From a virus, in IMG/VR virus record IMGVR_UViG_3300045988_166695, positions 1 to 58,545 of that record: a stretch of DNA of 58,545 nt; one strand, written 5' to 3'. Made by a program: the position numbers and the translations under genes. Below the pieces are notes generated by a model. It made no database searches. It was given only the letters and a program-made list of their open reading frames with translations, and was not told where the DNA came from. Below, one piece after another: positions 8,610 through 58,434 of this stretch; the first letter of the stretch is position 1, and the number at the start of each line of letters is the position of its first letter.

Positions 8610-11600
8610 TTACAATGATATCTTATTATAGGACCATGAATTTCCACCCCAGACACAGATAGCAAGGTGATTGTTCTCTTTTAACAGGTCCGATGTCGCA
8701 CCACCATTCAATGTACTTCCGTTTGCATGAACAATAGGACCACGACCTGTACCCGGCCATCGTTTTATAAGGTATACTTTTCCCACAGGTGGATTTTTAG
8801 GTAAATATACATTCTGGTCACTTCCGGAAAAGCTACATGATACGAAACAGTCTTCTAAGGTTAGATATCCCCCGGAAGTAATTGAACGCAGTTTTACAGC
8901 AAATCCGGAGATACACCCTACCAAGGCAAGCGCGATGTTATTCTCTTTCTGATATGCACCTGTAGCTGAGAAACGTGCGGCAATACAGGTATCTGCATAT
9001 TTGTTGTTATTGATCCACAACGGAACATTCAATCCTAAAGTGGCAGGTGCGGTATTAATACCTAAACCGGCAGTAATACTATCCCCTGAGAACTGAATAT
9101 TCTGGGTTGATATAGTCATTGATCCGGAAGTCAAAGAGGTACCGGATATTTTAAAGCCACCAATCATGGACTCTCCGGTAACAGTAAGGTAATTAGCTAC
9201 AATTTTGCCAGCCGCCAATGCATTTGCAACAATAACCTCAGACTCTATTATAAGGGTATTTATATAACCGTTTTTTATTATAGTTTTCTGTGGATAAGAA
9301 CTGGCGTAATTAACCATATCCTGCCATGAAGAGTACCCTATATTAGTTGCAATACTATTCTTTAGAGTATTCATTGCACTTTCGTCCAATAATCCGGGAG
9401 GTCCTTGTATGCCTTGTGGCCCTTGCGGTCCCCGAGGACCTTGCGGACCTTGTGGTCCCTGAGGACCGGTTGCGCCCTGTTGTCCGGGAAGTCCCTGAGG
9501 ACCTCTATCCCCTTGGGGGCCTTTAGTACCGGCGGGTCCTTGCAATCCTTGCGGACCTTGTGGCCCGGTTGCTCCAGTCGGACCGGTTGCTCCAGTATCT
9601 CCTTTTGGACCTATGCCACCTTGTAATCCCTGTGGCCCCTGTGCACCAGGATCTCCCTTATCCCCTTTATTTCCCTTAAAATTTTGTTGCTCTTCTGGAG
9701 ATAGGCCACCAAACGTCACCATACCACTAATACTGATATCCTGCCCGAATATATTGATAGCACCCGGCTTAATAGTGATTCCAGTTTTTAATTCATCCTT
9801 TGTTGGAGTGTCATCAATAGAGCCGGCGTCATATACTGTAGCAAAGGCAAGGTACCAAGTGACGGGGGAAGAACCAGAAACTAAATAGAAATAGTTGGTT
9901 GAAGAAAATGTACCTCCAACACCACACTTGACATAGTACGCATATTCCTCCCAGTCACCGGTCCCTACATTATTGGTAAGCCATTTTGCTGTCCTACCGT
10001 TACCCGTGGCGTTTGAAGCCCATTCAACATTGTATCCAACAGGAATCCATGCAATAAATCGAACTATAAATACAGCATTGGCACGAGACGCAGTAGTGAA
10101 AGTAAATCCGCCTAAACCTGGACTTACATTTCCTTGTGAAGTAATCTTTAATTTATATCCGGATTGATTAGGCAAATTAATATCTGCGACTCTCTCAACA
10201 GTTACAGATCCTCCGCCACCATTATTGTAGCTACCAATCCCATTTGTCCCATTATTTCTAAATTCTGGATCACGATTCAACATCTTACCCTTGCTCATGG
10301 CAAGAGCAATCAAACGTGCATTGCCCGATACCGTTGATACAAGGTTAATATCCGTCTTGGTCTGAGAGATCTCAGTTCCCTGATTGGATACAACCTGTCC
10401 GAGAGCGTCAAAGTCGGTTTGGGAGACTTTGCTTTCAATTAACCCTTTCGTAACGTTTATCTCTGAGTCGGTGTAGGTTTTGGCAATGTAGTTAAGATCT
10501 TCGGGGGCGGGGCTCCAGGTTACAGGAGTATTGGTTTCAAATACGCCAACTCTTACAGAGCCACCGTAACCATGAGAATAACTTCCTACAATCTTTGAAA
10601 TTGGCTTGCTGGATAGAAAATAGTTATAATCCACGCTATCAGAATATACAACACATATATGTTCCTCTGTTCCATCTGTATACTTGACAATAAAGAATAT
10701 ACTTGCTTTATCCGTTGCATCTGAACGGAATACCTTATCTATAAAAATATAGTATTGTTTTGTAGGGTCATATGTAAGTCCAAACATATCCTTATTTGCT
10801 AAATTGGTCTGTTGATGCAAAAGTCCTGGATCTACATAGAACCTACCATCGTCCTCATAATTTCTTAAATACGTAAATCCCGCATCAACAATACGTTTAA
10901 AAGAGCATAAGTTCTTAATACCTGCAACTCGCTCGCTTGCAGCAGGAATCCACTGTGTTACCCCTATGTTACCATCAGTAAGAACAGCCCAATGCACTTT
11001 TGAACCGAAAGTTCCGTTCGGAAATTGAAAGAAAGACAAATCTTCACCCGGCTTATATCCTTTCATGGTCACTTTTGTGCTTTCTACAACTCTTTCTCCC
11101 TTAGTTGTGAGATTTGCTATCATATTTGTACCACCATTAGAGTAAACACCTATATTGGTATTACCACTTCCAATAGTGTAGCATACAGTCAAAGTGTATT
11201 CCTTGCCATCAACAACAGGAGTATCATAATGATAAGCTGCAAACCTATAAGATGGATTTGCTTTCTCTATATAGGCGCCATTTAATATATTAACATCCCC
11301 CACCTTTATTTTACTCACCTCACCCTTCACAGCCAACGTAATCTGCCCTGGCAAAGCCTCCATAATCGTATCAGTCTCAATCTTAACCTTTTCCCCTACG
11401 TACGAGTATGAAGCGGAATTGATAGCGTCTATAATTGTCCGCTGCTGGTCATAATAAGCCTGTTGAAGAGTCTTGAATGAAGCGCTAACCGGTATATTTT
11501 CAGGCTCACTTGCCGAATGTGTCTCAAGCACATGATAGTAATCGTTGAAAGCATTCCGATAAGCAACGGTATCAATGCCATACCGTGTTGCATTAGCCAG

Positions 11601-14600
11601 AATAGAATCTCTTTCTGCCTTTAATGCCTCCATTTCCTGCTTTAACGCGGTCTTTTCAGTTGGAGAAATAAATCCATCAGAAGCCCAGGTGTTCAATCTA
11701 TCTTGGGCAGCTTTCGCATCGGTTTTGGCGATGTCTATTTCCTTGTTGGTTGACTCAAACTCCTGCTCGATGGTCTTTCCGTTGCGAAGGATGAAGATGC
11801 CTTTGAAATAACCGTTATTTGTATATATACCATTATCGTGCGGCTGCATATTATCCGGAAAATCCGGGTCCGTTATATGATCTAAATTCCCAAATACAGA
11901 GCGAGACGCTCCGGCAAATGACTTAGTCTTGACTCTACCTAATATCTCAATCTTAGGCTTACCATCCTCAGCAGCCGACATATATATCAAGCTCTGACGA
12001 AGAGGATTCTCAGTATTACCCATCTGTACAACTTCATCACCTACTACTGGTATAATTCCTTCAAACTCAGACTTTGGAATAGTTACGAGATTACCATTTA
12101 CACTCGCAACTTCGCACCAATAGTATTTACCTTTTTTAGATGATGTATCCTCCATTTTTTGAGTAACAGTAACCTTTCCGTTACCATGTCCGGAATCTAA
12201 TACAATCATTATACCAAGGTTGTATATCTCTTCGGATACATTGATGGCACGAATTACATTCTCGCCATTTGTCAAAAGCCCTCCTACAGTATCAGAACCG
12301 ATTCCATCCTTTGATAAACCACTCCATACAGCCATAGCACCATCATACAAACCAGATATTTCTAATTTGCATTCTTTAGTCGTTATAGGAGCATCTGCTA
12401 CATGTCCCTCTGGATACATGTAAAGTTGAAAGCCTGAATTTGCTGAATTATTCATGCTAAACTCAATGCTTGTGTTCGTTATCTTTACGCTATCATCTAT
12501 GGCTGAACCATCATATAAATAGGCTGTAAATTTTGTAAAATCAAAAGCCGGTGACTGGATTATTCTTCTATCAAATACTTGACATCTCACTAAGTCGTGC
12601 GCCTGGAATGTTTCATCTTCATCCTCAAATTCAAGAATCCAAGATTGCAAATCAGAAGTCTCAGTAACTGCACTGACTTTACCGTTCGCTTGGCTTATAA
12701 CAAGAGCACCATTTATTGAACGTACTTTCTGTATAAGCAACTCAAATACATTCATAACTTTCCTCACATCTAGAATGTCGCATTCTATATGCCAGTTGCC
12801 ATACTCGTCTTTATATATTTTAAAGCCTTCGCCTGTGAATCCCGGAACAAACTTCGGAGAAGAGGTGTATTCTTTCAATATAGCTGCGGCAGCGTTTAAT
12901 ACGCCATCCTCATATAGAGAAGCAGTAGGCTTTCCTTCGGATTCATTCCAACCGATTTCTATACCTTTACGAAAGGCCTGTTTGTAGAAGGTAACATCCT
13001 CTTGGTCTTTCCGAAAAAATGTTTCCAAAGACCGAAGGGAAGATAAAGCATTACGGTCAGTAAGCCTCGTTTTATCGTATCGCCCGACAATGTAAACACT
13101 TCCGGTACCGGAACCAGTAAAAGCCTCCCCTTTATATGTCAACGCTTCGACTTTACTTTCAATCTCTCCGATACGAGAATATTTAGTCGATTGTCCCACC
13201 GTATAAGTAACTTCATACTTCTTATCCAGTGCCTTTTCAAAGCCATATATACGAGATTGCCGGCTCTTTATTGCATAAGCCGGATTGATAATATTGACAC
13301 GATCCCCTATCTCCAAATCGATAACGCGTCCTCCATCGAATCCACCCACTTTTATCGGGTCCATGACGCATGTATAGACAGACGGGTCTATTTTACTCTT
13401 CTCTACGTAGCTTTTTGTCTTTTCAAGCAATTCCTTTTCGGCATCAGGAATCATGGACACAGAAACAAATTTTGTATCATATCCATACAAGACATAAGTG
13501 TTCCCATTCTCAGGGATTAACGGGACAGACGGAAGTTTGCGGCCGTAATCTTCATTCCTTACGATCTCCCATAACTGGGCAGCGGAGTTCCATGACCCGT
13601 CACTGTTCTTTTCATCCGCAGCACCCGGATTAAAGGTAACAGCGAAGTCCATACCGTTTAAAGGACCTGACTGAAATACAATTCTTAACTCCTGACCGGG
13701 GATAATATACTCTTTTGAAAAAGTTATGCTGGAATCCCTGAAACGGTAGGCATTCCATTTGACTTCCGTTGTGGTACCATCTTCATTCTCAATCTTGTCT
13801 GTGTATTCCTTAGTGGTCACATCTGACATGGTACCTATACGTTTAGGGAACATGTCATCAAATACAACGACTTCTTCAACAGCTTCTTCCGTAGACATAT
13901 CCGGAAAAGCGTCAACATAAGGAGTACCCTCGGGAAGCATCAATCTTCTTTGGACTACTCCGTCGACCACAACACCGGTTATATCCGGACGATAATTAGT
14001 AGGAAGGTTACGGGTAGAACCGAAAGCGTAAACACGGGTAGCATAATTATCGTTGCTTTCCGAACGAGACATTTCGGAAACAAGCCCATTCAGTTCAAAG
14101 TCTACCGCTGTGTTATACTCACATCTGCCCAGATGGATCACATGATCAACGATCCACCATTCAGCGTCCCATGTTTCCGCTATTTTGGTCAACGCATCAA
14201 TGATATTCGTATTATCGTACTGTATCAACTTAGCAGACTTCTCTACTGTGCTGTCAATAGAGAAAGTATATTCTACTCCTGAGTTGTATGTGTAACCTAA
14301 AGATTTTAAGTTAGAGACTACTATCGATAGATGCGCATCCGGAGTACGGGTAAGATTCCATGAAGCCTCGCGGTTACCACCTTGACGATCATAGAACAAT
14401 ATCTTATTCTTCCACTTATAGTATTCCGCGTCAAGACGGAGTTCATAATCATAGCCTCCTGTTGAAGTGTTGTACTTCGGGAATACAAGATCAACGATCT
14501 CAAATCGTCCGAATTCTGTTTCACAATAATCTCCCTTCTCAAAAAGAACCGGTTTGTCGACGTTGAAATAAAGAAGAATATAATCTTCTTTCATCAAAGT

Positions 14601-14675
14601 CTTACGGTATACAGAACCGGTATTCTCTTTCGTAGAGAAACGTATTTTGCCAGTTATGTCTTTAATGCTAATCAT
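8610..14675 (-). CDS. Tail fibre / tail-tip (Tal-like) protein with a collagen-like segment, 2021 aa
   Basis: It directly follows the Dit gene. The N-terminal region is typical of siphovirus tip proteins, and there are about 31 G-X-Y triplets near residue 1700. Confidence 0.8.
9393..9674 (-). repeat. Collagen-like G-X-Y repeat coding segment
   Basis: [19 protein letters not shown]...[13 protein letters not shown] is uninterrupted. Confidence 0.9.
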
Positions 14676-19194: not shown

Positions 19195-19252
19195 AAAATA
19201 GGAATGCGATATTTTCATTGCTTTTGTAATGAAAATATCGCATTCCTATTTT
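19195..19252. terminator. 25-bp perfect inverted repeat (bidirectional terminator candidate)
   Basis: AAAATAGGAATGCGATATTTTCATT, an 8-nt loop, then AATGAAAATATCGCATTCCTATTTT. It lies between convergent genes. Confidence 0.6.
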
Positions 19253-19405: not shown

Positions 19406-19744
19406 TTAATTAAGATCGCCAATAGAAAGTAAATTGGCACGCTTGAAAGAACGCCAAGATTCACGCTCTGTATCATAGTAAGTAAAAAGCGTATCATTAG
19501 GCTTTCTGCCGCTTTCTTTAGTTTCAGGCAATAAACTCTCTTGCAAACTTCCAAAAGCCTCTCTAATCTCACCAGATACTTTACGATAGTAGAAGCGAAC
19601 AATCTTATTCTTCATTGCCTGTTTGAGCTTGTAATTAGCCCAAGCAACCTTCATTGCTTCGCTCATAGTGTAACCATTCTTTCTCACAAATTGCCAAGCA
19701 AGATTTAAAATCTCTCTTAATGCGTTTCTTAATGATGTTGCCAT
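19406..19744 (-). CDS. Hypothetical protein (DUF2693/WYL_2-like SH3-barrel signature)
   Basis: VRFYYRKVSGEIREAFGSL ... YYDTERESWRSFKRANL. The N-terminal helix module is shared with 54546..54821. Confidence 0.5.
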   Translation of the reverse strand: MATSLRNALREILNLAWQFVRKNGYTMSEAMKVAWANYKLKQAMKNKIVRFYYRKVSGEIREAFGSLQESLLPETKESGRKPNDTLFTYYDTERESWRSFKRANLLSIGDLN

Positions 19745-19917
19745 AATACTTATTATTTTATGTGTTAGTATTCTATTTTATCTTATGTGATAATTTTATA
19801 ATGCAAATATATCACATAAAGCAAATATAAACCAAATAAAAGAACAGTTATTTTTATCCCAAATGATATTTTTAACAATTAATCATATCATATATAGCAA
19901 TTATTGGATTTTATATG

Positions 19918-39761: not shown

Positions 39762-40415
39762 TCAATGATAGATACTATGATTTTTCCATCCCTCTTGTTG
39801 GCAATTGGCTGGGAAATAAATACCTGTGTAAACAAGATAACGATATAATGTTCCCTTTGACACTTTCAAATTCTTAGCTATAAAAGTTTTTTCTGTTCCT
39901 TTAGCCAATTCTTTTACAATATAATCATGTTTGTTGGCACATTTGGGATTAAGTCTACAGCGAAAGCCACGACGATGACCGAGCATTGCCCCTTCTGCTT
40001 TTTTTCTAGCTAATGCCTCTTTTGTACGTTGACTGATAAGATTACGTTCAATCTCAGCTGACAATCCGAAAGCAAAGGCAAGAACTTTACTTTGTATATC
40101 TTCCCCAAGTCGATAGTTATCTTTAATTGTCCACACTTTGCATCCCTTTGTCATACAGATATTCAAGATTTCCATAATCATAAAGAGATTACGTCCAAGA
40201 CGTGAAAGTTCACTACAGATGATAATATCATCTTTGCGTACTTTACGTAGTAAACGTCCAAGCTGTCGTTTTGTGTAATTTTTCGTTCCACTAATAGTTT
40301 CTTCAATCCAATCGCCAATTGTTAACTCATTAATTTTACAGAAATTACTTATCTCAAAACGTTGGTTTTCTACAGTTTGTTTATCACTACTTACTCTAAT
40401 GTATCCGTAAATCAT
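39762..40415 (-). CDS. Small serine recombinase (resolvase/invertase family)
   Basis: MIYGYIRVSSDKQTVENQ with the catalytic Ser, SELSRLGRN, and a C-terminal HTH VSKGTLYRYL. Confidence 0.9.
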   Translation of the reverse strand: MIYGYIRVSSDKQTVENQRFEISNFCKINELTIGDWIEETISGTKNYTKRQLGRLLRKVRKDDIIICSELSRLGRNLFMIMEILNICMTKGCKVWTIKDNYRLGEDIQSKVLAFAFGLSAEIERNLISQRTKEALARKKAEGAMLGHRRGFRCRLNPKCANKHDYIVKELAKGTEKTFIAKNLKVSKGTLYRYLVYTGIYFPANCQQEGWKNHSIYH

Positions 40416-42970: not shown

Positions 42971-45229
42971 CTAAAATCTCACGTTAGTTAATTGTCTACC
43001 ATTAGAAAATACAGCCCATTTCCCATTGCCGCTATCAAATAACCGCAAATCCGACACCTCACCGAAGCGTTTGATGTTTCCACATAAATCTACAATCCAT
43101 CCAACCTCTTTCTGAGGATGTGGACGAATAGCCCGACCAACTATCTGATACCACATAGCAAGTGACATCGTAGGACGGGCCATAACAACCGTATCAAGCT
43201 CGGGATAATCGAATCCACAAACCAGTACACCTACATTCGCCACTACTGGTATTTCTCCAGCCTTGAACGCTTCGAGTATTCTTTCACGCTCGCCTTTTGG
43301 AGTATCACCGGAAACAATGACACATCCGGGAATGGACCATGTAAGCTGTTCAGCTTCTTTCAAGAATCGGGTAAATACTAAAATGCCTTTTCTCTTACCA
43401 CCTGCTTTTGGATTCATCAGCCTTTGGACGATATGAACGAGATAACCGTAGAAGTCTATTCGTTCATATTCCTTTTGGATTGATTTATCCGTATAGTCGG
43501 CGCCAGTGGTATTTACCTTCAAATTGAGTTCATTCCACCCTGAAGGATTCATCGGATAGTAATTCAACTTTGCCAAATATCCCATATCTAAGAGAGTTGA
43601 TACCTGTACATGGTAAATGACCTCTGAAAAGACATGAGGCTTTGTCCGAGTGATGAATTTCAGCATGGAGCCGAAGTCACGTGAGGAAGACAATCTATAA
43701 GGAGTTGCCGTCAAGCCAAGAACCTTACACTTCACCGCATTGAAGAAATCCTTGTACATCCCCTCTTTAGGGTTAACAAGGTGGCATTCGTCCACGATGA
43801 TGTTCTTGAAGTGGGTGAACAGTTCAGGATGGTTCTTCACGCTGCCTATGGTGGCAAATGTTATCCGGCTTATCTCCTTTGAGTTGAAAGAAGCTGAATA
43901 GATACTGCAATCAAGAATGCCGTATGAACAGAGTTTCTTAAAGTTCTGTTCGAGTATTTCCTTGCTCGGCTGAAACACCAAGGTATGTCCATCAAGTCTT
44001 GCGGCTATATCCGCTATAATAAGGCTCTTTCCGCTGTTATGGTGTATGAAGAATTGACCATCGCAGTATAAATGATTACCATCAATCGTGAAACCATAAT
44101 AATTACCACGTCCTAAGTATTTTACGGTAAATCCTGTTACAAGAACACTTTTCTTTTGTAAACGTGGTTTTCCTTTTCTGATTTTAACTTTGGTAGGTAT
44201 TATGTCAAGTTTTCCAGTTATCGACATACGGTAATACGTTTCACCATTTACTATTTTCCATGTTTTAGTGCCACAGAAAAGACCAAGAGAACGACATAAG
44301 AATATTATATCATCTGCTAGTTGCTCTGATTTGGTGCAATATTCATAGGTGTTTTTGTTGTTGTCGTAATAGGAATCTGTATCAAGCAATCCTGCAAGTA
44401 ACTCTAATCTATCGCATTTTGAAGCTGTCTTATAATGAGTTGGAATGAATTTGAACGCAGAAGTCAATCCTGTAAGCCCCAATTCATCCAAGAATACTAT
44501 AATTGGATTAGGATTCGCACGGCTAACTTTAATATTTGAAAGGCTGTAAGTAGAAGCTAAATTATTTTTCTTTGTGGCTTTTCTTACTTTCATACCATAC
44601 CTTGCAGCAAAAGAATATAGAAAATCCTCCACTTCTTTCCGTTGAGAGGTTATATCAATACCATTGACAGAACAACCGTCACCAAGATAAAGACCAAGGA
44701 AATAAGGTTCAATCACAGACTTTGTTTCGTTGCCGAAATCTACAAAATCCGGCTTCCTTAACTTATGAAGATGTTTGTAATTGTTGCTTGTTTTAAGATA
44801 TTCCTCTACGGAAATTTCGTCAATCCTCGGCATACATGATGGAAAGTTCTTACCCTCATTCGTTTTATACAAAGAAAGTATATGACCGCCATTAACGACA
44901 AATGGTTCACCTTTTATTGGTGTAATCTCATAAAGTTTATCTACACCTCTATGAAGCTCCAATACGGTACGTTTATTACCATCATCGCCAACAAGCTCGT
45001 CATCGACTTTTACATCTTCAACATACTTGATTGAACCGTCATACATTAGGATTTTAGAGCCTTTTGCGTGGCATCCAGTCGGAAGAACCATAATCGCATT
45101 GCTCTTTTTGTTAGAACAGAAGAAAGATACAGCAGAATCGCTCGCCTTTTGCTGGTAATCCCTCAACTTAAAAGTTGTGGTAACGGTACTATTATTCACG
45201 TTATCACCTAATTCATTGTACTTTGGCAT
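42971..45229 (-). CDS. SF2 (DEAD/DEAH-type) helicase interrupted by an intein in the P-loop
   Basis: Motif I is split as LPTG / SGKS. Motif II is VDECH and motif III is LTATP. I prefer the ATG at 45227..45229 (MPKYNELG..). Confidence 0.85.
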   Translation of the reverse strand: MPKYNELGDNVNNSTVTTTFKLRDYQQKASDSAVSFFCSNKKSNAIMVLPTGCHAKGSKILMYDGSIKYVEDVKVDDELVGDDGNKRTVLELHRGVDKLYEITPIKGEPFVVNGGHILSLYKTNEGKNFPSCMPRIDEISVEEYLKTSNNYKHLHKLRKPDFVDFGNETKSVIEPYFLGLYLGDGCSVNGIDITSQRKEVEDFLYSFAARYGMKVRKATKKNNLASTYSLSNIKVSRANPNPIIVFLDELGLTGLTSAFKFIPTHYKTASKCDRLELLAGLLDTDSYYDNNKNTYEYCTKSEQLADDIIFLCRSLGLFCGTKTWKIVNGETYYRMSITGKLDIIPTKVKIRKGKPRLQKKSVLVTGFTVKYLGRGNYYGFTIDGNHLYCDGQFFIHHNSGKSLIIADIAARLDGHTLVFQPSKEILEQNFKKLCSYGILDCSIYSASFNSKEISRITFATIGSVKNHPELFTHFKNIIVDECHLVNPKEGMYKDFFNAVKCKVLGLTATPYRLSSSRDFGSMLKFITRTKPHVFSEVIYHVQVSTLLDMGYLAKLNYYPMNPSGWNELNLKVNTTGADYTDKSIQKEYERIDFYGYLVHIVQRLMNPKAGGKRKGILVFTRFLKEAEQLTWSIPGCVIVSGDTPKGERERILEAFKAGEIPVVANVGVLVCGFDYPELDTVVMARPTMSLAMWYQIVGRAIRPHPQKEVGWIVDLCGNIKRFGEVSDLRLFDSGNGKWAVFSNGRQLTNVRF
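44036..45073 (-). mobile_element. Intein with a LAGLIDADG homing-endonuclease domain (346 aa)
   Basis: It starts CHAKGSKILMYDG and ends FFIHHN, followed by a +1 Ser. The two LAGLIDADG motifs are LGLYLGDGC and LLAGLLDTDS. Confidence 0.8.
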
Positions 45230-45409
45230 TTTGTGAATGAATTTAGTTGATATAAGAAAGGCTATCGCCTCCCATACTCGCCAAAGTACAATTACCACGT
45301 GAATGTAGTAACCACTGGGATTTGATAGCCCTATGCAGTGCTAAATAAGCGTCAATAATAGCATAAAAAATAGCTACTACTTTCACGAATGAAATGTACT
45401 TTGGCATTG

Positions 45410-45730: not shown

Positions 45731-46206
45731 ATCCCTTTCTCCTTTCGTAACTTCTTATTAAGTGCCTTGTAATACTTGATTAGCTGCTCGTACTCAAAAT
45801 CAGACATCTTAGAAGTACCAGCAGCTTTCACTTTCAGCAAGTCAAATTTCTGTTGTCCGATTTTAGCAATTAGATTCACCCGATAGCCTTCCAAATGGTC
45901 AGCTTTGAACCTGTTGCAGTGTCGGCATTCGGCATGACAATTATCTTCATCGAAACGTGTCGCCAGATGTGTGCGACTGAAATAGTGTCCGCAGTCAGCT
46001 TGCCCGAATGGTTTTATCTGTCCACATGAGATACAGCGAAAGTACCCGTTCGGCATTGCATCACGAAGCCGGATAAAAAGGGAAAACTCCTTGTCGAGCT
46101 TAGCTTTCAAATCCGGCTTCTTCTTTACTGTTATCCCTGCTTTATCAAACAAGGGTAAAGGCTTGTCTTTCTTCTTAGCCTTTGTTCGTTTTATGTAGTA
46201 CGGCAT
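45727..46206 (-). CDS. ninG: NinG/Rap-like recombination endonuclease
   Basis: FSLFIRLRDA...CISCGQ...CGHYFSR...NCHAECRHCN. Confidence 0.75.
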   Translation of the reverse strand: MPYYIKRTKAKKKDKPLPLFDKAGITVKKKPDLKAKLDKEFSLFIRLRDAMPNGYFRCISCGQIKPFGQADCGHYFSRTHLATRFDEDNCHAECRHCNRFKADHLEGYRVNLIAKIGQQKFDLLKVKAAGTSKMSDFEYEQLIKYYKALNKKLRKEKGI

Positions 46207-46610
46207 TCTACTATTGGTTTACATAGTTCAACAACTCGTTTGCAATCCTCCACATCGAACATTCCAATGTGACAAACCTCATGTGGTATGTTTAGTTGGT
46301 TAGATAACCATAAATAGGATTTGTTCCTGTTTGAGGTATTAGGAATGTACTCTTTCCAAATTTTATTAATAAGTCCAGTTTTCGCTATTTGGTCGAAATA
46401 GAAATGGGCTTCTTTCTTAGCTTCTCTTAATTCCGCATTTGCCAAACGTCCTAATGCTTGGTCTGTACCCTTATGTACACCAACGTAAGCTCTACAATCA
46501 CGACACAGATAAATCATGCCGTAGGAGCGTCCGTAGATTATGGAACTATCCATGTATTCAGTTGGCTTACCACAATAAGGACAAATCTTGCCAGTTAATA
46601 TTTCATTCAT
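46191..46610 (-). CDS. Zinc-ribbon protein (DUF3268-like)
   Basis: CPYCGKPTEY...YLCRDCRAYVGVHKGT. I prefer the ATG at 46608..46610. Confidence 0.5.
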   Translation of the reverse strand: MNEILTGKICPYCGKPTEYMDSSIIYGRSYGMIYLCRDCRAYVGVHKGTDQALGRLANAELREAKKEAHFYFDQIAKTGLINKIWKEYIPNTSNRNKSYLWLSNQLNIPHEVCHIGMFDVEDCKRVVELCKPIVECRTT

Positions 46611-46852
46611 AGTTTTCCAATTAAAAGCCCCGAAGCGTATTCTCCGGGGCACAACCATTCTTTACTAACCCTTGCCATTTATGTGTGGCTCACATTTATG
46701 TGGTGGCAGCAGGACTTGCACCTGCATGATAGGATTGATACGGATTGTCAGGTTTTATTTTCAACCTACCTAACACTTAGCAAAGAATTTCACTTTACGA
46801 TTAACCGTACTCAATTAGCGTCTCTCATTGTTCCGCCATACCACCAACTATC

Positions 46853-50880: not shown

Positions 50881-51635
50881 TAATTTTCTCCTCCAAATAT
50901 CTTTTTATCGGTGATTAATTCTCTGTTTTCTTCCAAGAACCGGATAAATTCCTCACAATGATTAGTAAGAATAGGTATATCACGCTCCGGATTGAACACA
51001 TAAGTTTCAGTATAGGTATCTACCACATAACCGCCCTTGTTAAACTCTACAATGTTGTACTCAAATGTCCGTACATCAGAACCGTTCTGCATAAGAGCGA
51101 ATGGATAAACAAGGTGTTGGTGGTGGTCTTTGAACTTTCCTACGGTGTAGCTACCGGTAGTTTTGATGTCATGAACGCTCGTAGGCATCAATTCATCAAT
51201 CAGACCGTAAACCAAAACATTACCATAGACTGTTGGTAAAATCGCTTCCACCCTCTGCTGGGTTAATGCGCCTTTGAAATAATCAGCAAATTCTCGGCAA
51301 AGAGAAATGGGAAAAACAAATGTGCGGTCATTGTAAACAACCGTATAACAAGTATTATCCTTGTTGCGCTCTACATCCATACCGTTCGGCTTGCGATTTT
51401 CTATAAGAGCGTCCACCAACTCATTAAAGGCTGTGCCCTTGTCGGCCGCTTCACTGTCGAAAGGTTTACGATTGATACAGTTTATCAGTTCTTGAAACTG
51501 TTGCTCGTGAAACTCTTCGGGGGTATGGGGTGGGTTTTCTGACCACTCCCAATATTTATCCCAAATCACATCACTATTCAGATATCCCCAAAAGGCATCA
51601 AGAATCGTGGCGTAAAAGCGATATCTAGGCTGCAT
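50880..51635 (-). CDS. PD-(D/E)XK nuclease superfamily protein
   Basis: GLIDEL...VHDIKTT...QHLVY fits the D..(D/E)xK..QxxxY pattern. An alternative start is at 51662. Confidence 0.65.
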   Translation of the reverse strand: MQPRYRFYATILDAFWGYLNSDVIWDKYWEWSENPPHTPEEFHEQQFQELINCINRKPFDSEAADKGTAFNELVDALIENRKPNGMDVERNKDNTCYTVVYNDRTFVFPISLCREFADYFKGALTQQRVEAILPTVYGNVLVYGLIDELMPTSVHDIKTTGSYTVGKFKDHHQHLVYPFALMQNGSDVRTFEYNIVEFNKGGYVVDTYTETYVFNPERDIPILTNHCEEFIRFLEENRELITDKKIFGGEN

Positions 51636-52557
51636 CTGAATAAGTTTTTGTCTCTTTATCAAATACTAACCCCAAAGAGTTTACTTTGGCGGCAAACAGG
51701 CTTCTCGCTTTCATCAGAGAACTACCAACATGTTCAAACTCATTAATATGAGAGGCGAATTCATTAGCAGACTTGGCATCAGTTATAAACTCGATACTTT
51801 CTTTGATTTCCTCTATCACCTTGTCATACTTTTCCTGCGCTTCCTTCTTAGCCGCCAGCATACTTAAATAAGAATTGATTATCTTAGTGGTGATAAAGTC
51901 GTTCTTTGCGATCGGATTGCCGTTTCTGTCAAGAATAATAGGCACTTCCATTACTGATGGCAGATTACAGGTGTTTTTACCGTCATTTCTTGAAGTCGGA
52001 TCAAAGGTTATAGTACGTCTCTGTATGCCTCTCTCGCTCTTCATTTCGAGATAACCGAGTAAATCCAATTCTGTAACGATGGAATTATAAGATTTCTCAC
52101 GTAAAGCAGGAATGAACACCGTATCATCACCTTCTTTTCTTGTATCACGATGGGCTACAAAAATGATATGCTTATTCAAACCTGACAATGTTCTCGTCAT
52201 CCATGAAAATTCAGCATTGATACCACTCCAATCCCTGATAGACGGCTGGCGAGTTCCACATTTATAAGTAATGATAAAATCCATCATCTTACCGATAGTA
52301 TCTACTACGATTGTCTGATAATCCGATAAATCTTCTTGCAAAACCTGTTGAACATCATTCCATGAAGTGACCTGTACGGTATCTATGTTTTCCAGATGCA
52401 CCATATTCATGCGTTTAACACCATTATCAAAGTCTAATAACAAAGGCTTCGGAGCACTCAATGCTACTGTACTCTTTCCCATACCTGCTTGACCGTAAAT
52501 CATCATCTTTACGGTGGTGGGAATTACTAATTCATTCGATTTTTTGATTAAACTCAT
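51625..52557 (-). CDS. Sak4-like RecA-fold ATPase (AAA_24)
   Basis: MMIYGQAGMGKSTVALSAPKPLLLDFDNG. Confidence 0.8.
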   Translation of the reverse strand: MSLIKKSNELVIPTTVKMMIYGQAGMGKSTVALSAPKPLLLDFDNGVKRMNMVHLENIDTVQVTSWNDVQQVLQEDLSDYQTIVVDTIGKMMDFIITYKCGTRQPSIRDWSGINAEFSWMTRTLSGLNKHIIFVAHRDTRKEGDDTVFIPALREKSYNSIVTELDLLGYLEMKSERGIQRRTITFDPTSRNDGKNTCNLPSVMEVPIILDRNGNPIAKNDFITTKIINSYLSMLAAKKEAQEKYDKVIEEIKESIEFITDAKSANEFASHINEFEHVGSSLMKARSLFAAKVNSLGLVFDKETKTYSDAA

Positions 52558-52865: not shown

Positions 52866-53221
52866 GTTTCTATCCTCCTAATTCTATATTCCATTCTAGA
52901 TCTTCTTAACCTCTTTATATCTCCATTATCATGATAAAGCGACAAAGAGAAAATACATAATAGACTAAATGCAATAGCAGATCGGGTTACAGGAGAAAAA
53001 TCAAAAGTAAACTTCATACCTGAGATACGTTCTGCAAGCTTTCGCATCAGTTCTCTCCCATTTCTAACATTTAATTCTGCGAATGCCGTTTGTATCTGAT
53101 TGTTGATGGTACTGATAGCTCTACATTTAAGAGCTGCAATTTCCTTTTTTTCGTACCCTTGTGCGTACATCCTTGCTGTAATTTCGCATTCAGGTGTTAA
53201 TTCTGTAAATACTCTGTCCAT
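52862..53221 (-). CDS. LuxR/GerE-type HTH regulator with a C-terminal hydrophobic segment
   Basis: LTPECEITARMYAQGYEKKEIAALKCRAISTINNQIQTAFAELNVRNGREL. Confidence 0.6.
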   Translation of the reverse strand: MDRVFTELTPECEITARMYAQGYEKKEIAALKCRAISTINNQIQTAFAELNVRNGRELMRKLAERISGMKFTFDFSPVTRSAIAFSLLCIFSLSLYHDNGDIKRLRRSRMEYRIRRIET

Positions 53222-53240
53222 AATCGTGTAAGTTTGAGTA

Positions 53241-53462
53241 CTATTTAGTCATGTTATTAACGATATACATAGAATTTGTATATTTATTCTTCGAAATGGT
53301 ATATACATTCTTACCACCCGGAGCTACAACACCTTTTTCTCTTAATTCTTTGTTTATCTCATGTGCCTCTTGTCGGTATCCAGTTACTTCAACTTCTGAT
53401 AGCGGGATAATCTTCTGTTTTCCCGGTTTTACTTTTAAAATCGTTTCTCTAATTGTTGCCAT
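53241..53462 (-). CDS. Hypothetical protein
   Basis: 73-aa ORF. Confidence 0.55.
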   Translation of the reverse strand: MATIRETILKVKPGKQKIIPLSEVEVTGYRQEAHEINKELREKGVVAPGGKNVYTISKNKYTNSMYIVNNMTK

Positions 53463-53491
53463 AAAATTTATTGTTTAAGTTTAATAAATAG

Positions 53492-53574
53492 TGGATGGTA
53501 AAGGAGTCGAACCTTTCTCACTCGTTTTGAATTGGTTGCGCAACACGAAGCTCTAACCGATAAGCTAACCACCC
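53492..53574 (-). ncRNA. 83-nt tRNA-like element with a G3:U70 pair and a 17-19-nt anticodon-position loop
   Basis: GGGTGGT/ACCATCC acceptor, D-arm GCTT-ATCGGTTA-GAGC and T-arm AAAGG-TTCGACT-CCTTT. The central stem TCGT/ACGA closes a loop GTTGCGCAACCAATTCAAA. No CCA is encoded. Confidence 0.45.
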
Positions 53575-53783
53575 AAATTGCCTGCATCACTCTTGATACA
53601 GGACTTTATCGAAAAAATCACAAAATAAAAAACCATGAAAACTATTCTCACGAACCGTCATTCACCAACACATAAAAACACAATATTAAGAACCCGCCCG
53701 ACTGGTTTCCCTTACTATCAGCGCTGAACATTGCAGGCGCCTTATGTCGAATTATAGGACTACCTTTTTGCGGGTGCTAAAAT

Positions 53784-53963
53784 CTATTTTCCAAATATTT
53801 CATCTATTTCTGTTTCCAATCTTTTATAATGCCTACCCATATAAACACAAACAATAGCAAAAGCTATAAATGCAATCCAAAAGGCAACACCAAAATCTTG
53901 AAAAGTGATGGTCATAACTATAAATGACACACACCAAATAAACGTCAATGGTAATACTTTCAT
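53784..53963 (-). CDS. Small two-TM membrane protein (59 aa)
   Basis: MKVLPLTFIWCVSFIVMTITFQDFGVAFWIAFIAFAIVCVYMGRHYKRLETEIDEIFGK. It is an AT-rich island between G+C-richer non-coding flanks. Confidence 0.4.
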   Translation of the reverse strand: MKVLPLTFIWCVSFIVMTITFQDFGVAFWIAFIAFAIVCVYMGRHYKRLETEIDEIFGK

Positions 53964-54326
53964 TTTTCTTGTAGTTATTAATTAAAGTTCCCGTGACCGT
54001 TCCGATGTTTGGCCTTACAACCTCTTTAGAGGCACGGGATATATTGTCGATATGCGTGTCGGTCGCCTAATCCGTCATTACTTACTCCTCAAAGACTATG
54101 GATACATATCTGCTAATCGTTATACATTGTACAGCTCGCAGGCCCCAACCTGCTTATGTACGTTAAGCTGAGTCAGTCACTCCAATAAGCTGTAACCCTT
54201 AAAGGAGGCTTTCACAAGATGTAAAAGATCTATTTTCTGTGTTCCCAGCCTCCCTTCAAGGGCAGGCTCAATGACCGGACTGGGTGCCGAACAACCGGCA
54301 GTTTTGATTTGACTTTAGGGTGAAGA
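53964..54326 (-). ncRNA. ORF-free, G+C-enriched, helix-rich region (structured RNA candidate; strand inferred from context)
   Basis: Several GC helices are present, for example 53990..53995/54033..54038, 54138..54153, 54247..54268 and 54285..54300. No ORF of 60 aa or more occurs on either strand. Confidence 0.4.
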
Positions 54327-54524
54327 TTAAGGCTTTGCCGAAATAATATTGGCGATGGTACCGATGGACTTAATAGCCTCTATCAGTTCCGATTTCTTGG
54401 AATCCGCTGTTGTCCACAATGATTCATACATTGCTTTGTCCTTTTTCAATTGTTGGTTCTCCTCTTCCAACTTCTCCACTTTTTCTTCAAGAAGTTCAAT
54501 CTGTGATTTCTTTAAATCTTCCAT
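54327..54524 (-). CDS. Hypothetical coiled-coil protein
   Basis: 65-aa ORF. Confidence 0.5.
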   Translation of the reverse strand: MEDLKKSQIELLEEKVEKLEEENQQLKKDKAMYESLWTTADSKKSELIEAIKSIGTIANIISAKP

Positions 54525-54545
54525 ATCGATTTATTATTAATTTGA

Positions 54546-54821
54546 TTATCTTGATACATACCCCATTGTCAGATTACCCAGTGGATCACTGTACAAATCT
54601 GAGATAGAGAGATTCTTGTTCGGGAAAAGTGGTTTTCCACTTTCTATAAATTCTTTTTCAGATTTATATTCATCCATATTTAAACGAGCATCTACCCATG
54701 ACATTTTTAGTGATGATTTCAGAGAATATCCGTAGTTGCGGACATACACCCAAGCTCTCTGCATGATCGCTTTCATGTTATATTTGCCATTTATTACTAA
54801 CTTATAATCTCTTTTCTTCAT
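54546..54821 (-). CDS. Hypothetical protein (N-terminal module paralogous to 19406..19744)
   Basis: RAWVYVRNYGYSLKSSLKMSWVDARL compares with LAWQFVRKNGYTMSEAMKVAWANYKL. Confidence 0.55.
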   Translation of the reverse strand: MKKRDYKLVINGKYNMKAIMQRAWVYVRNYGYSLKSSLKMSWVDARLNMDEYKSEKEFIESGKPLFPNKNLSISDLYSDPLGNLTMGYVSR

Positions 54822-54888
54822 AACTTTTTGTCTTTTAATACGTTTAGACTATTTATATCTAAAAATCTTTTCTTTATCTTTGTATCGG

Positions 54889-54902
54889 TGATTACGTTAT
54901 CA
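54889..54902. promoter_or_regulatory. Near-palindromic operator-like box TGATTACGTTATCA, copy 1
   Basis: An identical 14-mer lies at 55346..55359. Confidence 0.45.
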
Positions 54903-54903
54903 C

Positions 54904-54922
54904 CTTATTGATGATGCAAAGA
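54904..54922. repeat. Left arm of a perfect 19-bp inverted repeat (CTTATTGATGATGCAAAGA)
   Basis: It is the exact reverse complement of 55300..55318. Confidence 0.9.
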
Positions 54923-54924
54923 TA
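54917..54924 (-). promoter_or_regulatory. Leftward -7 box TATCTTTG (early-left promoter candidate)
   Basis: It matches TAnnTTTG on the minus strand, upstream of 54546..54821. Confidence 0.45.
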
Positions 54925-54938
54925 CTACTAATTAGTAG
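54925..54938. promoter_or_regulatory. 14-bp perfect palindrome CTACTAATTAGTAG (operator candidate)
   Basis: It lies immediately upstream of the leftward -7 box. Confidence 0.4.
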
Positions 54939-54990
54939 CATTGCAAACCAAACAGTATTAAAAATTATACTATTTAGTATTATTAACGTT

Positions 54991-55317
54991 ATGACTATCA
55001 ACGAAAGATTTGCTGAAATACTTAAATCAAAGAATATCAGCGTAAAAGACACTGCATCCTTAATAGGTAAGTCAGAGGTATATGTGCGTAAGTTAATGCG
55101 TGCTGGTGAAAGTTTCGGCATAGAACCAGTACTTCTTATACTAAATAGTATAGAAGATGTAAATCCCGATTGGTTGTTAAGGGAAAAAGGTACTATGTTC
55201 AGAAAACAATCCGAGATGGAAGAATCATCCCCTATCACCAACGAACGCCTGCTTTCTATCATCGAGAGCCAGCAGAGAACCATTGAGAACCTTTCAAACT
55301 CTTTGCATCATCAATAA
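54991..55317 (+). CDS. CI-type phage repressor-like HTH protein
   Basis: FAEILKSKNISVKDTASLIGKSEVYVRKLM ... NPDWLLREKGTMF, the Phage_CI_repr signature. Confidence 0.8.
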   Translation: MTINERFAEILKSKNISVKDTASLIGKSEVYVRKLMRAGESFGIEPVLLILNSIEDVNPDWLLREKGTMFRKQSEMEESSPITNERLLSIIESQQRTIENLSNSLHHQ

Positions 55318-57165: not shown

Positions 57166-58434
57166 ATGAATATCAAAAGAAATTGCATATTCTTACTCGA
57201 TAAAGAGAAGGATAAAACAGACGCCAAACTTCGGTATCGAATCAAATGGGAGACAAATACAGTCGCATTCAATGTTGGATATAGGATTGATATAGACAAG
57301 TGGATTCCGGAAGCCCAAAGATGCAAAAATAATACAACTCACGGCAAAAAAAGGATTCATTCCTCTTACATAAACAGTGAGATACAAAGATACGAACAAA
57401 CTATGAATGAAGTGTTCTGCATATTTGAGCAAAAGGGATTATCACCAAACCAAGAAGAGTTTAAAGAATTATTTAATGAAAAAATAGGAAAAGATAAAAA
57501 GCCTCAAAAGAGCATCTTTGAGTATTATCAAGATTTTATGATTGATCAGGGAAGAGAAAACCAATGGACAGAGGCAACATATAAGGAACATACCACAATC
57601 AAAAGACATTTATTAAAGTTTGCCCCTAAACTTGAATTTTCAGACTTTACAGAGAAAGGATTATCTTTATTTGTAGAATATATGCAGAATGTAAGAATCA
57701 ACTCTAAGAAAACAGGTATGAAGAATACGACAGTAAGAAAGAACCTGGATAATCTTAAATGGTTTTTGCGTTGGGCCTCAGAAAAAGGATACAATACAGA
57801 AATGGCATTCATGTCTTATCAACCAAAGTTGAAAACGGTCAAAAACAAAATCCTCTTTTTAACCTGGGAGGAACTAATTACTATGTATAATTTCGACCTA
57901 TCAAACAATGATACTTTAGAAAAAGTGAGAGACGTATTTTGTTTCTGCTGCTTTACCTCATTAAGATATTCTGATGTGGCACATCTGAGGCGATCTGACG
58001 TGTTTGATTCATATATCCAGATAACCACAATAAAAACTTATGAAAACCTCAAAATAGAGCTAAATGACCGATCTAAATCTATCCTTAATAAATATCGTAA
58101 TGCTAAGCTATCTAATGATTTAGCTCTTCCCGTTATTTCAAATCAAAAGATGAATGAATATATAAAAGAAATAGGAAGAATATGCAATATCAATACTCCT
58201 ATTACAGTCATATATTATAAAGGAGGAAACAGAATAGAAGAAATACGTCCGAAACATGAATTGATAAGTACACATTGCGCAAGGCGGACATTTATCAGCA
58301 ATGCAATAATGATGGGGATTCCTCCTGAAATCGTAATGAAGTGGACGGGGCATGAAGACTACAAAGCAATGAAACCCTATATTGACATAGCAGATCAAGC
58401 AAAAAAAGACGCAATGAAACTATTCAATAAATAA
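57166..58434 (+). CDS. int: Tyrosine recombinase (Bacteroides-type phage integrase)
   Basis: N-terminal SAM-like and core-binding regions are present. The C-terminus HCARRTFISNAIMMGIPPEIVMKWTGHEDYKAMKPY carries the R/H/R/Y catalytic pattern. Confidence 0.9.
   Translation: MNIKRNCIFLLDKEKDKTDAKLRYRIKWETNTVAFNVGYRIDIDKWIPEAQRCKNNTTHGKKRIHSSYINSEIQRYEQTMNEVFCIFEQKGLSPNQEEFKELFNEKIGKDKKPQKSIFEYYQDFMIDQGRENQWTEATYKEHTTIKRHLLKFAPKLEFSDFTEKGLSLFVEYMQNVRINSKKTGMKNTTVRKNLDNLKWFLRWASEKGYNTEMAFMSYQPKLKTVKNKILFLTWEELITMYNFDLSNNDTLEKVRDVFCFCCFTSLRYSDVAHLRRSDVFDSYIQITTIKTYENLKIELNDRSKSILNKYRNAKLSNDLALPVISNQKMNEYIKEIGRICNINTPITVIYYKGGNRIEEIRPKHELISTHCARRTFISNAIMMGIPPEIVMKWTGHEDYKAMKPYIDIADQAKKDAMKLFNK

Follow-up and report, generated by a model that had tools for sequence, protein, structure and literature searches.

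The put element of the lambdoid phage HK022 is a cis-acting, RNA-only processive antiterminator of ~60–70 nucleotides (nt), composed of two stem-loops and located near the start of an early operon. The aptamer of the purine riboswitch is a three-way junction in which the helix P1 closes P2 and P3, and the loops of the two latter kiss. GOLLD and ROOL are single RNAs several-fold larger than any of the modules described below. Both of these are associated with phages and prophages and are found near tRNA genes (PMC5737381). From Bacteroides phages, a 49-nt structured motif has been described, the DUF2693-FD RNA (RF02926; Weinberg et al. 2017, PMC5737381), and in Bacteroidota prophages noncoding RNA (ncRNA) arrays associated with the UG27 reverse transcriptase (RT) consist of repeats of one ~150-nt unit (about 135–167 nt), are accompanied by the RT and two accessory proteins, and provide cDNA templates (bioRxiv 10.64898/2026.09.22.753630). 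Here we describe a noncoding stretch at positions 53964–54326 of the 58,545-nt virus sequence IMGVR_UViG_3300045988_166695 of IMG/VR, the whole of which is called the window in the following. An initial annotation, made from the letters of this sequence without database searches, had proposed that the stretch is a structured ncRNA or a long leader within the early-left transcription unit. This proposal is supported by the comparison with related loci, in which the homologous DNA is noncoding and several helices are retained through compensatory changes. The best-supported element, a pseudoknotted three-way junction that we call motif X, had gone unnoticed.

The window represents a temperate Bacteroides phage with a tyrosine integrase encoded at 57166–58434. 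Of the cultured phages, Bacteroides phage BS-TP2 is most closely related to it, with ~87% identity across the recombination module. When the loci are compared side by side, a chain of modules is seen between the last small early open reading frame (ORF) and an ORF with two predicted transmembrane segments (two-TM ORF), and the stretch 53964–54326 is homologous, module by module, to noncoding DNA at the equivalent place in many temperate Bacteroides phages and prophages. At the level of sequence, these comparisons demonstrate that several secondary structures of the RNA type are under selection on the strand that is transcribed, and that the modules are exchanged between phages. Read on the minus strand, in the sense direction of the early-left genes, the modules are T, Z, S, H, X and Y in this order, followed by the two-TM ORF, block B and an odd tRNA:

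54285–54300, minus strand: hairpin T (UGCCGG-UUGU-UCGGCA), from comparison by eye
54241–54284, minus strand: clamp Z, DUF2693-FD-like, from comparison by eye
54209–54227, minus strand: linker motif UCUUU(U/G)A...GUGAAAG, conserved in relatives
54180–54207, minus strand: hairpin S (CUCC/GGAG plus UAAG/CUUA, loop GGUUACAG), from comparison by eye
54129–54161, minus strand: hairpin H, from covariation count and minimum free energy (MFE)
54049–54110, minus strand: motif X, a pseudoknotted three-way junction, from covariance model, covariation and RNAalifold
53987–54038, minus strand: clamp Y, DUF2693-FD-like, from comparison by eye and MFE
53784–53963, minus strand: two-TM ORF of 59 amino acids (aa) between RNA modules, from the ORF call
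53693–53774, minus strand: block B, from RNAalifold and compensatory changes
53491–53574, minus strand: tRNA-like gene, called by ARAGORN and by the Rfam tRNA model (RF00005; 40.2 bits, threshold 29)

Motif X is 62 nt long and thereby the largest single module of the array. Its P1 (GAUAUG/CAUAUC) closes two hairpins, P2 (UCC/GGA, loop AUAGUCUUUGA) and P3 (CGG/CCG, loop AUUAGGCGA), with the junction sequence GUAAGUAAUGA, and a pseudoknot is formed between GUCU of loop 2 and AGGC of loop 3. The nucleotides of loop 2 (GUCUUU), of the junction (GURAGYA) and of loop 3 (UAGGC) are invariant, whereas the stems vary. P2 and P3 each occur in several versions (four or more), and eight unrelated P1 sequences were seen across the loci (GAUAUG/CAUAUC, GAUGUG/CACAUC, GAAAACA/UGUUUUC, CUUUCAGC/GCUGAAAG, CUGUUAG/CUAACAG, AACAUGC/GCAUGUU, ACAACCCAGC/GCUGGUUGU and AAUCCAG/CUGGAUU). 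In every type inspected, a G+C-rich clamp comes within ~10 nt after X, past a linker (..AUAUAR).

A MAFFT alignment of all X types was structurally inconsistent, and a first covariance model, built from window-type sequences only, proved too narrow, as the BS-TP2 type was matched weakly. The second model, built from the matches of the first, recovered 23 instances, of which 17 are distinct. In the window it places one X only, at 54047–54112 on the minus strand, the window sequence being part of the seed. Among the 17 distinct homologues, 96.0% of the cells form standard pairs, compared to 68.0 ± 1.9% in shuffles (0 of 500 shuffles reached the observed value); both sides are changed in 13 of the 17 pairs, and the covariation score is 0.626 versus 0.147. 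When the 3′ partners were slid by 1–3 columns, a control that preserves relatedness, pairing was 35–45%. Although the pseudoknot helix lies outside the search model, 96% of its cells are paired, with C-G (5) and U-A (4) at one position and U-A (14), A-U (1) and G-U (1) at another; the A-U pair derives from the variant of L064 and L069, in which GUCU becomes GUCA together with a change of AGGC to UGGC. RNAalifold, run separately on the X alignment, returned the same junction with compensatory change in 12 of 13 pairs. No match of X to the 4227 models of Rfam 15 was obtained, either for the window (54047–54112, E≤10), for the X of BS-TP2, or for 12 further loci at the gathering threshold. In the literature we found no paper on these modules; the searched strings are absent from the text of the supplement of Fremin and Bhatt 2021, with whose catalogue of 3161 motifs an overlap is possible. 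X is a well-supported, uncatalogued pseudoknotted three-way junction with strong covariation.

Compensatory changes also retain the helices of H and block B. Hairpin H consists of an outer stem (GUACA/UGUAC), an internal loop and an inner stem (GCAGG/CCUGC) with the loop UUGGGG. It is 100% paired in nine distinct sequences (slid controls 12–46%), two of its pairs are changed on both sides (C-G to U-A and A-U to G-C), one compensatory pair being in the inner stem, and three pairs alternate between G-C or A-U and G.U (six G.U cells on the minus strand). Its MFE has a z-score of −2.9, and its formal covariation support is modest. Block B follows directly after the stop of the two-TM ORF and contains P1 (CCCGC/GCGGG), P2 (UCGAC/GUCGG) and the invariant 18-mer AAAAGGUAGUCCUAUAAU, which is present in more than 120 IMG/VR contigs. 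From 10 distinct block B sequences, RNAalifold predicted the long-range helices P1 and P2, with compensatory change in 7 of 18 pairs, and the block accompanies the two-TM ORF even where the upstream modules are missing (L037, L038). Strings resembling UAGUCC and UUCGAC, together with a T-arm in BS-TP2, had suggested group I intron, tmRNA or RNase P readings of two conserved blocks. These were rejected, as ARAGORN called no tmRNA and no Rfam match was found; the T-arm downstream of block B in BS-TP2 is part of a separate tRNA-like gene with an AT-rich insert.

The remaining modules were compared by eye. The variant of hairpin S in the window is common to L233, whose stem is CCUCUUAU/AUAAGGG, and most relatives have another type with the loop UGUAAUUCAUAAG and the stems ACGG/CCGU, AUAG/CUAU and UCGG/CCGU, such that the stems differ between phages while pairing is retained. 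Hairpin T is represented by UGCCGGUUAUCCGGCA in L292–L297, where the closing G.U of the window becomes G-C; this one-sided change is the sole comparative backing of the T helix. On the plus strand, T (54285–54300) forms a hairpin followed by the T run GTTTTGATTT and scores as an intrinsic terminator, which could stop antisense transcription into the early-left genes or be due to chance; in the region, 3 such sites were found as against 0.8 expected.

With regard to the clamps, Z has an outer stem CCCA/UGGG (4–5 bp) around CCGGUCAUUGA and an interrupted hairpin (GCCU-G-CCCU-UGA-AGGG-AGGC), while Y has a 6-bp outer stem CCCGUG/CACGGG around the hairpin CCUCUAAAGAGG and the conserved AUCGGAACG. 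Both end in GGGAAC. Y is situated 10 nt past X, via the linker GACAAUAUAU, and its MFE z-score is −2.1. Homologues of Z are found in the same slot in L292–L297 and after X in L253 and L270, and have the outer stem CCCC(GCC)/(GGC)GGGG, that is, an A-U to C-G change. Homologues of Y occur in L271 (identical outer stem, other inner hairpin), L160 (CCAGC/GCUGG) and L196 (CCCGU/ACGGG), and elsewhere the Y slot holds CCUGUAC/GUACAGG (BS-TP2), CCCGUGC/GCACGGG (L068) or a true DUF2693-FD RNA (L122). Hence, in the few sequences at hand, the outer stems of both clamps differ among homologues with pairing preserved. The 3′ arm of the Z hairpin could instead pair with the 5′ arm of S (54196–54210 with 54247–54261; 15 nt, 80% complementary), which would make the two folds mutually exclusive; since this pairing is not kept in the relatives examined, we rejected it and treat it as chance.

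The clamp slots of relatives are occupied by the known DUF2693-FD RNA, for which RF02926 scores 62–76 bits; it lies upstream of S-H-X in BS-TP2, L009, L064, L069, L139 and L161, and on both sides in L122. The architecture of RF02926, i.e. a 7-bp outer stem, a mini-hairpin CG-GAUUGAA-CG and a 5-bp hairpin, resembles that of Z and Y by eye. However, Z and Y of the window stay below the gathering threshold (44.5 bits) and gave no match at E≤10 in a 1.2-kb scan (53400–54600), and because they miss the model we call them DUF2693-FD-like and not members of the family. A neighbouring DUF2693 gene is likewise missing: the only WYL_2 (formerly DUF2693) gene of the window is at 19406–19744, and orf91, at the equivalent position, lacks the domain. 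The stretch common to orf91 and gp17 of BS-TP2 is confined to 32 N-terminal residues, and the WYL_2 barrel is absent from orf91. We also considered that WYL_2 protein type and clamp type are replaced together, as would be expected of a protein binding DUF2693-FD RNA, and rejected this, as L068 and L273 have WYL_2 but a non-Rfam clamp; the associations seen follow phage relatedness. The WYL_2 gene itself (minus strand) resembles a stand-alone moron, with two TATATTTG boxes upstream (19804–19811 and 19822–19829) and a terminator-like hairpin directly downstream, past which lies a long near-perfect hairpin (AAAATAGGAATGCGATATTTTCATT...AATGAAAATATCGCATTCCTATTTT, ~19195–19250).

It is also evident that the array is a mosaic. 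The comparison set comprised ~180 related phage and prophage loci, and as these were retrieved with patterns from the very modules under study, locus counts are not estimates of prevalence. Motif scans of IMG/VR gave, besides the contigs with the block B 18-mer, 73 contigs with a block A 20-mer, and a scan with a Z pattern gave six closer relatives of the upstream part of the window (L292–L297). A loose gapped X pattern, applied to species-representative genomes, yielded mostly chance matches across unrelated phyla, with ~8 Bacteroides loci being real. Prophage copies are present in eight genome records, one labelled only Bacteroidetes bacterium and seven named Bacteroides (B. muris, B. pyogenes, Ca. 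B. pullicola, sp. GD17, sp. KFT8 and two uncultured). T and Z of the window recur in L292–L297, its S type in L233, its H and X in the groups of L122 and BS-TP2, and its Y type in L271, L160 and L196. In phages of the L002 type, S and H are replaced by ~250 nt of other sequence and X is retained; L068 has a different middle module; and L253 and L270 have their Z-type clamp after X. L292–L297, which are the closest relatives for orf91, orf65 (with close homologues of both), T and Z, are without X and carry other modules plus a tRNA instead, whereas L196 carries two copies of X. The genes downstream of X vary among loci as well: X is followed by unrelated two-TM ORFs, by RNA modules with a tRNA, or by unrelated ORFs. 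This variability speaks against a gene-specific switch, and we therefore rejected a gene-specific riboswitch. In the pairwise alignment with BS-TP2, two noncoding blocks are more conserved than the two-TM ORF between them. This ORF, also reported by the initial annotation, is conserved in position but barely in sequence; BLASTP found no similarity to gp19 of BS-TP2, and tblastn gave 54–58% identity to the versions in L068 and L239. L253 holds yet another two-TM ORF, with a similar C-terminal ERLxxEI tail.

Several further statements of the initial annotation could be evaluated from the window itself. The stretch does lie in the longest run uncovered by ORFs of at least 60 aa on either strand (53479–54326, 848 nt; the next longest is 592 nt), and a coding role can be discounted, as there are 5–8 stops in each of the six frames; the homologous DNA in relatives is noncoding as well. 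The local G+C contents were reproduced as counted (44.6% for 53964–54326, 47.0% for 54001–54300 and 63.3% for 54241–54300), but the background is higher than the ~30% given there: the mean of the window is 37.3% and the flanking ORFs have 30–38%. With this background, and with the stretch at the 94th percentile of G+C among 363-nt windows, the enrichment is real but moderate. The four helices quoted, which correspond to the outer stem of Y, the inner stem of H, the hairpin of Z and hairpin T, all exist where they were placed. The description of the stretch as packed with helices does not hold thermodynamically, the MFE z-scores against dinucleotide shuffles being −1.20 (minus strand) and −1.60 (plus strand), which is within chance. 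Such ordinary folding energies mean that the sequence by itself does not prove structure and that the support comes from the comparative data. X is thermodynamically unremarkable and was therefore missed when the raw sequence was read. The Rfam scan found no known family in the stretch, the match after it being the tRNA, so that the tRNA-like element noted there is confirmed. As to the claimed novelty, it stands for X, H, S and block B, none of which matches an Rfam family, and has to be qualified for the clamps, whose slots hold the known DUF2693-FD RNA in relatives.

The G.U pairs indicate which strand is structured: it is on the minus strand, sense for all neighbouring genes, that the X pseudoknot has its invariant U.G and that every G.U cell of H is located. 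Upstream of the array are the following features:

54917–54924, minus strand: Bacteroides-type −7 box TATCTTTG, found with the pattern TANNTTTG
54875–54882, plus strand: divergent partner box, found with the −7 box pattern
54546–54821, minus strand: orf91, a small early ORF upstream of the array
54327–54524, minus strand: orf65 (coiled-coil), a small early ORF upstream of the array

The promoter role of the −7 box is presumed from established knowledge of Bacteroides promoters, and the box at 54917–54924 is the putative driver of orf91, orf65, the array and what lies downstream. The array is 0.5–0.9 kb from this putative early-left promoter, and ~31 kb of co-directional minus-strand genes follow. 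No minus-strand −7 box was found within 53464–54326. In each of the 14 representative loci checked, the 450 nt before the X core likewise lack a TAnnTTTG box on the sense strand, and the boxes of two of these loci are all downstream. We also considered the conserved UUCUUUGA linker as an internal promoter of the Bacteroides type and rejected this, since the linker does not fit TAnnTTTG and no box was found. On the minus strand, no intrinsic terminator was predicted in 53200–55200 except one upstream of the promoter. Farther downstream, a strong terminator-like hairpin (46650–46627, minus strand; 9 bp, 7 of them G-C, then UUUUAAUU) is located at the start of the ORF 46191–46658, inside the co-directional block of early and middle genes. 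Terminator-like sites in the region 34–54 kb are altogether at chance level (13 versus 12.0 ± 3.9 expected).

With some reserve, we consider it probable that the array is accessory and gives rise to structured RNA early in expression, which as RNA acts on a factor of the host or of the phage, whether in cis or in trans. The array would be co-transcribed with orf91 and orf65 from the promoter at 54917–54924, and transcription would carry on through the two-TM ORF, block B, the tRNA and the recombination genes; having no promoter box of its own and no intervening terminator, the array is presumably carried on the early-left transcript. The G+C-rich clamps (Z and Y in the window, DUF2693-FD in relatives) would bracket the S-H-X core and, with the nearby tRNA, probably delimit and protect a stable RNA excised from the transcript. 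X is likely the working part, serving as a docking surface for a constant partner, and a partner that is conserved while the surrounding phage genes vary points to a host factor. An accessory role is favoured because close relatives lack X, one prophage has two copies and the modules are shuffled like morons.

Several observations weigh against this reading or limit its reach. Single-sequence folding of the whole region is ordinary, and the MFE z-score of X alone is +0.24. The support for Z, Y, S and T consists of few sequences and few events read by eye, and a few block B variants have A.C mismatches in P1, which correspond to G.U on the opposite strand. The loci were retrieved as stated above. 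The covariance model fitted the X alignment to nested helices and thereby favours pairing; this bias is mitigated by the agreement of the pseudoknot and RNAalifold checks. The letters of the sequence are compatible also with a G.T-tolerant single-stranded DNA (ssDNA) structure on the same strand, and beyond the conserved structure on this strand, we infer transcript, processing and partner alike.

The alternative that fares best is that X, perhaps with its clamp, controls the lytic transcript in cis by acting on RNA polymerase or the nascent RNA, as a put-like antiterminator, an attenuator or a stability element, and thereby lets expression proceed into the ~31 kb of genes that follow in the same direction. 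A promoter-proximal array at the head of a long minus-strand gene run, always in sense orientation and without its own promoter box or terminator, would suit such a role, as would the constant X-linker-clamp arrangement. The invariant loops of X suggest a conserved host partner such as RNA polymerase, its size and two stem-loops recall put, and the terminator-like hairpin at 46650–46627 provides one strong intrinsic terminator within the co-directional block. On the other hand, X is absent in L292–L297 and doubled in L196, which is odd for an essential operon control, the module content is highly mosaic, terminator-like sites do not exceed the chance level, and the clamps are not followed by U tracts. 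We therefore regard cis control as possible but doubtful.

Considerably less probable is that the structures act as ssDNA, i.e. as a replication or priming site, as a recombination or annealing hotspot near the Sak4, SSB and HNH genes, or as a boundary for module exchange. Covariation cannot distinguish RNA from ssDNA (Weinberg et al. 2017, PMC5737381), recombination genes adjoin the region, and the region is itself a recombination mosaic. However, a repeat search gave only short two-copy matches and neither iterons nor other repeats in multiple copies; the genes for the replication initiator and the helicase lie at a distance of 7–10 kb (helicase at 42971–45298, with the initiator placed beside it by the BS-TP2 annotation); the structured strand is the transcribed one, with the invariant U.G (G.T in DNA) of the X pseudoknot; the modules are interleaved with tRNA genes; and related phages carry a family filed by Rfam as small RNA (sRNA). 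The replication origin that the initial annotation offered as an alternative thus finds no support, there being no repeat family of more than two copies and the region being enriched in G+C, not AT-rich. Finally, that the region has no dedicated function, as decayed coding, selfish or hitch-hiking DNA with helices due to chance or shared ancestry, would be consistent with the ordinary folding energies, with the close relatedness of most retrieved relatives (which leaves many conserved columns uninformative) and with the one or two informative substitutions in several modules, but it is highly improbable and for X largely refuted, since the three helices and the pseudoknot of X persist through eight unrelated P1 and four or more P2 and P3 sequences, and since X occurs in prophages of at least eight species-level genomes, drops in pairing in the slid controls, and combines invariant loop and junction nucleotides with variable stems and no reading frame.

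The tRNA genes beside the array are themselves unusual. The tRNA-like gene of the window has a 19-nt anticodon loop (canonically 7), for which ARAGORN gives the 4-base anticodon 'tgcg' and no amino acid. It can be read as an Arg-GCG loop, UUGCGCA, plus ~12 extra nt starting near the canonical intron position 37/38. The BS-TP2 homologue, which has an insert of 13 nt, is called as tRNA-Arg(GCG), and the same 'tgcg' type is present in L295 and L296. The odd tRNA of the BS-TP2/L009 types (L001 ~13452–13575, minus strand; L009) is good in its acceptor stem and in its D and T arms but holds an AT-rich ~45-nt insert in the anticodon loop, and is not called by ARAGORN. A tRNA with the 4-base anticodon 'taat' is intact in L293 (2658–2733, minus strand) and L296 (3056–3131, plus strand), and in L292 and L295 (~420 nt downstream of Z) it carries a ~100-nt insert in the anticodon region. 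Insertions in the anticodon loop thus seem to be recurrent in the phage tRNAs of this array. Elsewhere in the window, the 775-aa helicase (42971–45298, minus strand; ResIII and Helicase_C) has an intein-like insert with Hint and LAGLIDADG homing-endonuclease domains (residues ~76–365), and besides the tyrosine integrase the phage encodes a serine recombinase (39762–40415, minus strand; Resolvase and HTH_7 domains).

More speculatively, X may be a new class of phage RNA with a defined molecular activity: an RNA-only antiterminator for the RNA polymerase of Bacteroidota, an RNA that decoys or inhibits a host protein of defence or RNA processing, or a fold that senses a ligand or is catalytic, with the DUF2693-FD-type clamps as the packaging that makes pieces of the early transcript stable. 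We think this unlikely as it stands, but if it were true, the early-left noncoding array of very abundant gut phages would be a toolbox of functional RNAs that can be swapped. In metagenomes of the human gut, temperate Bacteroides phages of this type rank among the most frequent viral contigs, and the phylum of Bacteroides is not known to have Hfq or ProQ. Binding of X to RNA polymerase, to a defence protein or to a small molecule would make it a new class of regulatory RNA in a phylum whose RNA biology is poorly known. As BS-TP2 has been cultured and carries the same S-H-X core, the RNA is directly testable.

Compared with the known systems, the region is not categorically new, since structured RNAs of Bacteroides phages, namely the DUF2693-FD RNA, are already known. 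By eye, Z and Y share with this family the CCC.../...GGG outer stem, the short conserved segment, the hairpin and the GGG(U/A)AC end, and the strand and the phage lineage (Bacteroides phage) agree with those of the window, the family being filed by Rfam as an sRNA. In contrast, the family comprises the 49-nt clamp only and does not cover X, H, S or block B, and it is located after a DUF2693 (WYL_2) gene, which lies two genes upstream, whereas the WYL_2 gene of the window is 34 kb off. With put, X shares a similar size, a position on the sense strand near the start of an early operon and a presumed conserved host machine; it differs in that its three-way junction is closed and has a loop-loop pseudoknot, in that two ORFs and ~0.8 kb separate it from the promoter, and in being single-copy and absent in some close relatives, the likeness being one of layout. 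The purine riboswitch resembles X in gross architecture, size, loop-loop pairing and the presence of conserved junction nucleotides, but the conserved nucleotides of X are different and no Rfam riboswitch model matches it. A large ornate RNA of the GOLLD or ROOL kind, as suggested by the initial annotation, was not recovered: the association with phages and prophages and the proximity to tRNAs are shared, but no Rfam match to GOLLD or ROOL was found in the window, and the locus is a chain of 16–62-nt modules that recombine independently between phages. The UG27 arrays are alike in being phage-encoded arrays of structured, sequence-diverse ncRNAs with a pseudoknot in prophages of gut Bacteroides, with units gained and lost among close relatives. 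The modules of the window are, however, of different kinds and not copies of a tandem unit, and Pfam found no RT (RVT domain) in the ORFs flanking the array or in the scanned ORFs of at least 250 aa, which are all but the 2021-aa ORF 8610–14675 and the 310-aa ORF 51625–52557 (the latter corresponding to a BS-TP2 gene with the annotation Sak4-like ssDNA annealing protein); on these two grounds an RT-linked array of the UG27 type was rejected. What is new in relation to these systems is X, with H, S and block B as further modules, and the placing of DUF2693-FD as one bead of a mosaic array beside unusual tRNA genes; the beads are interleaved with these genes and are swapped between phages like protein-coding morons.

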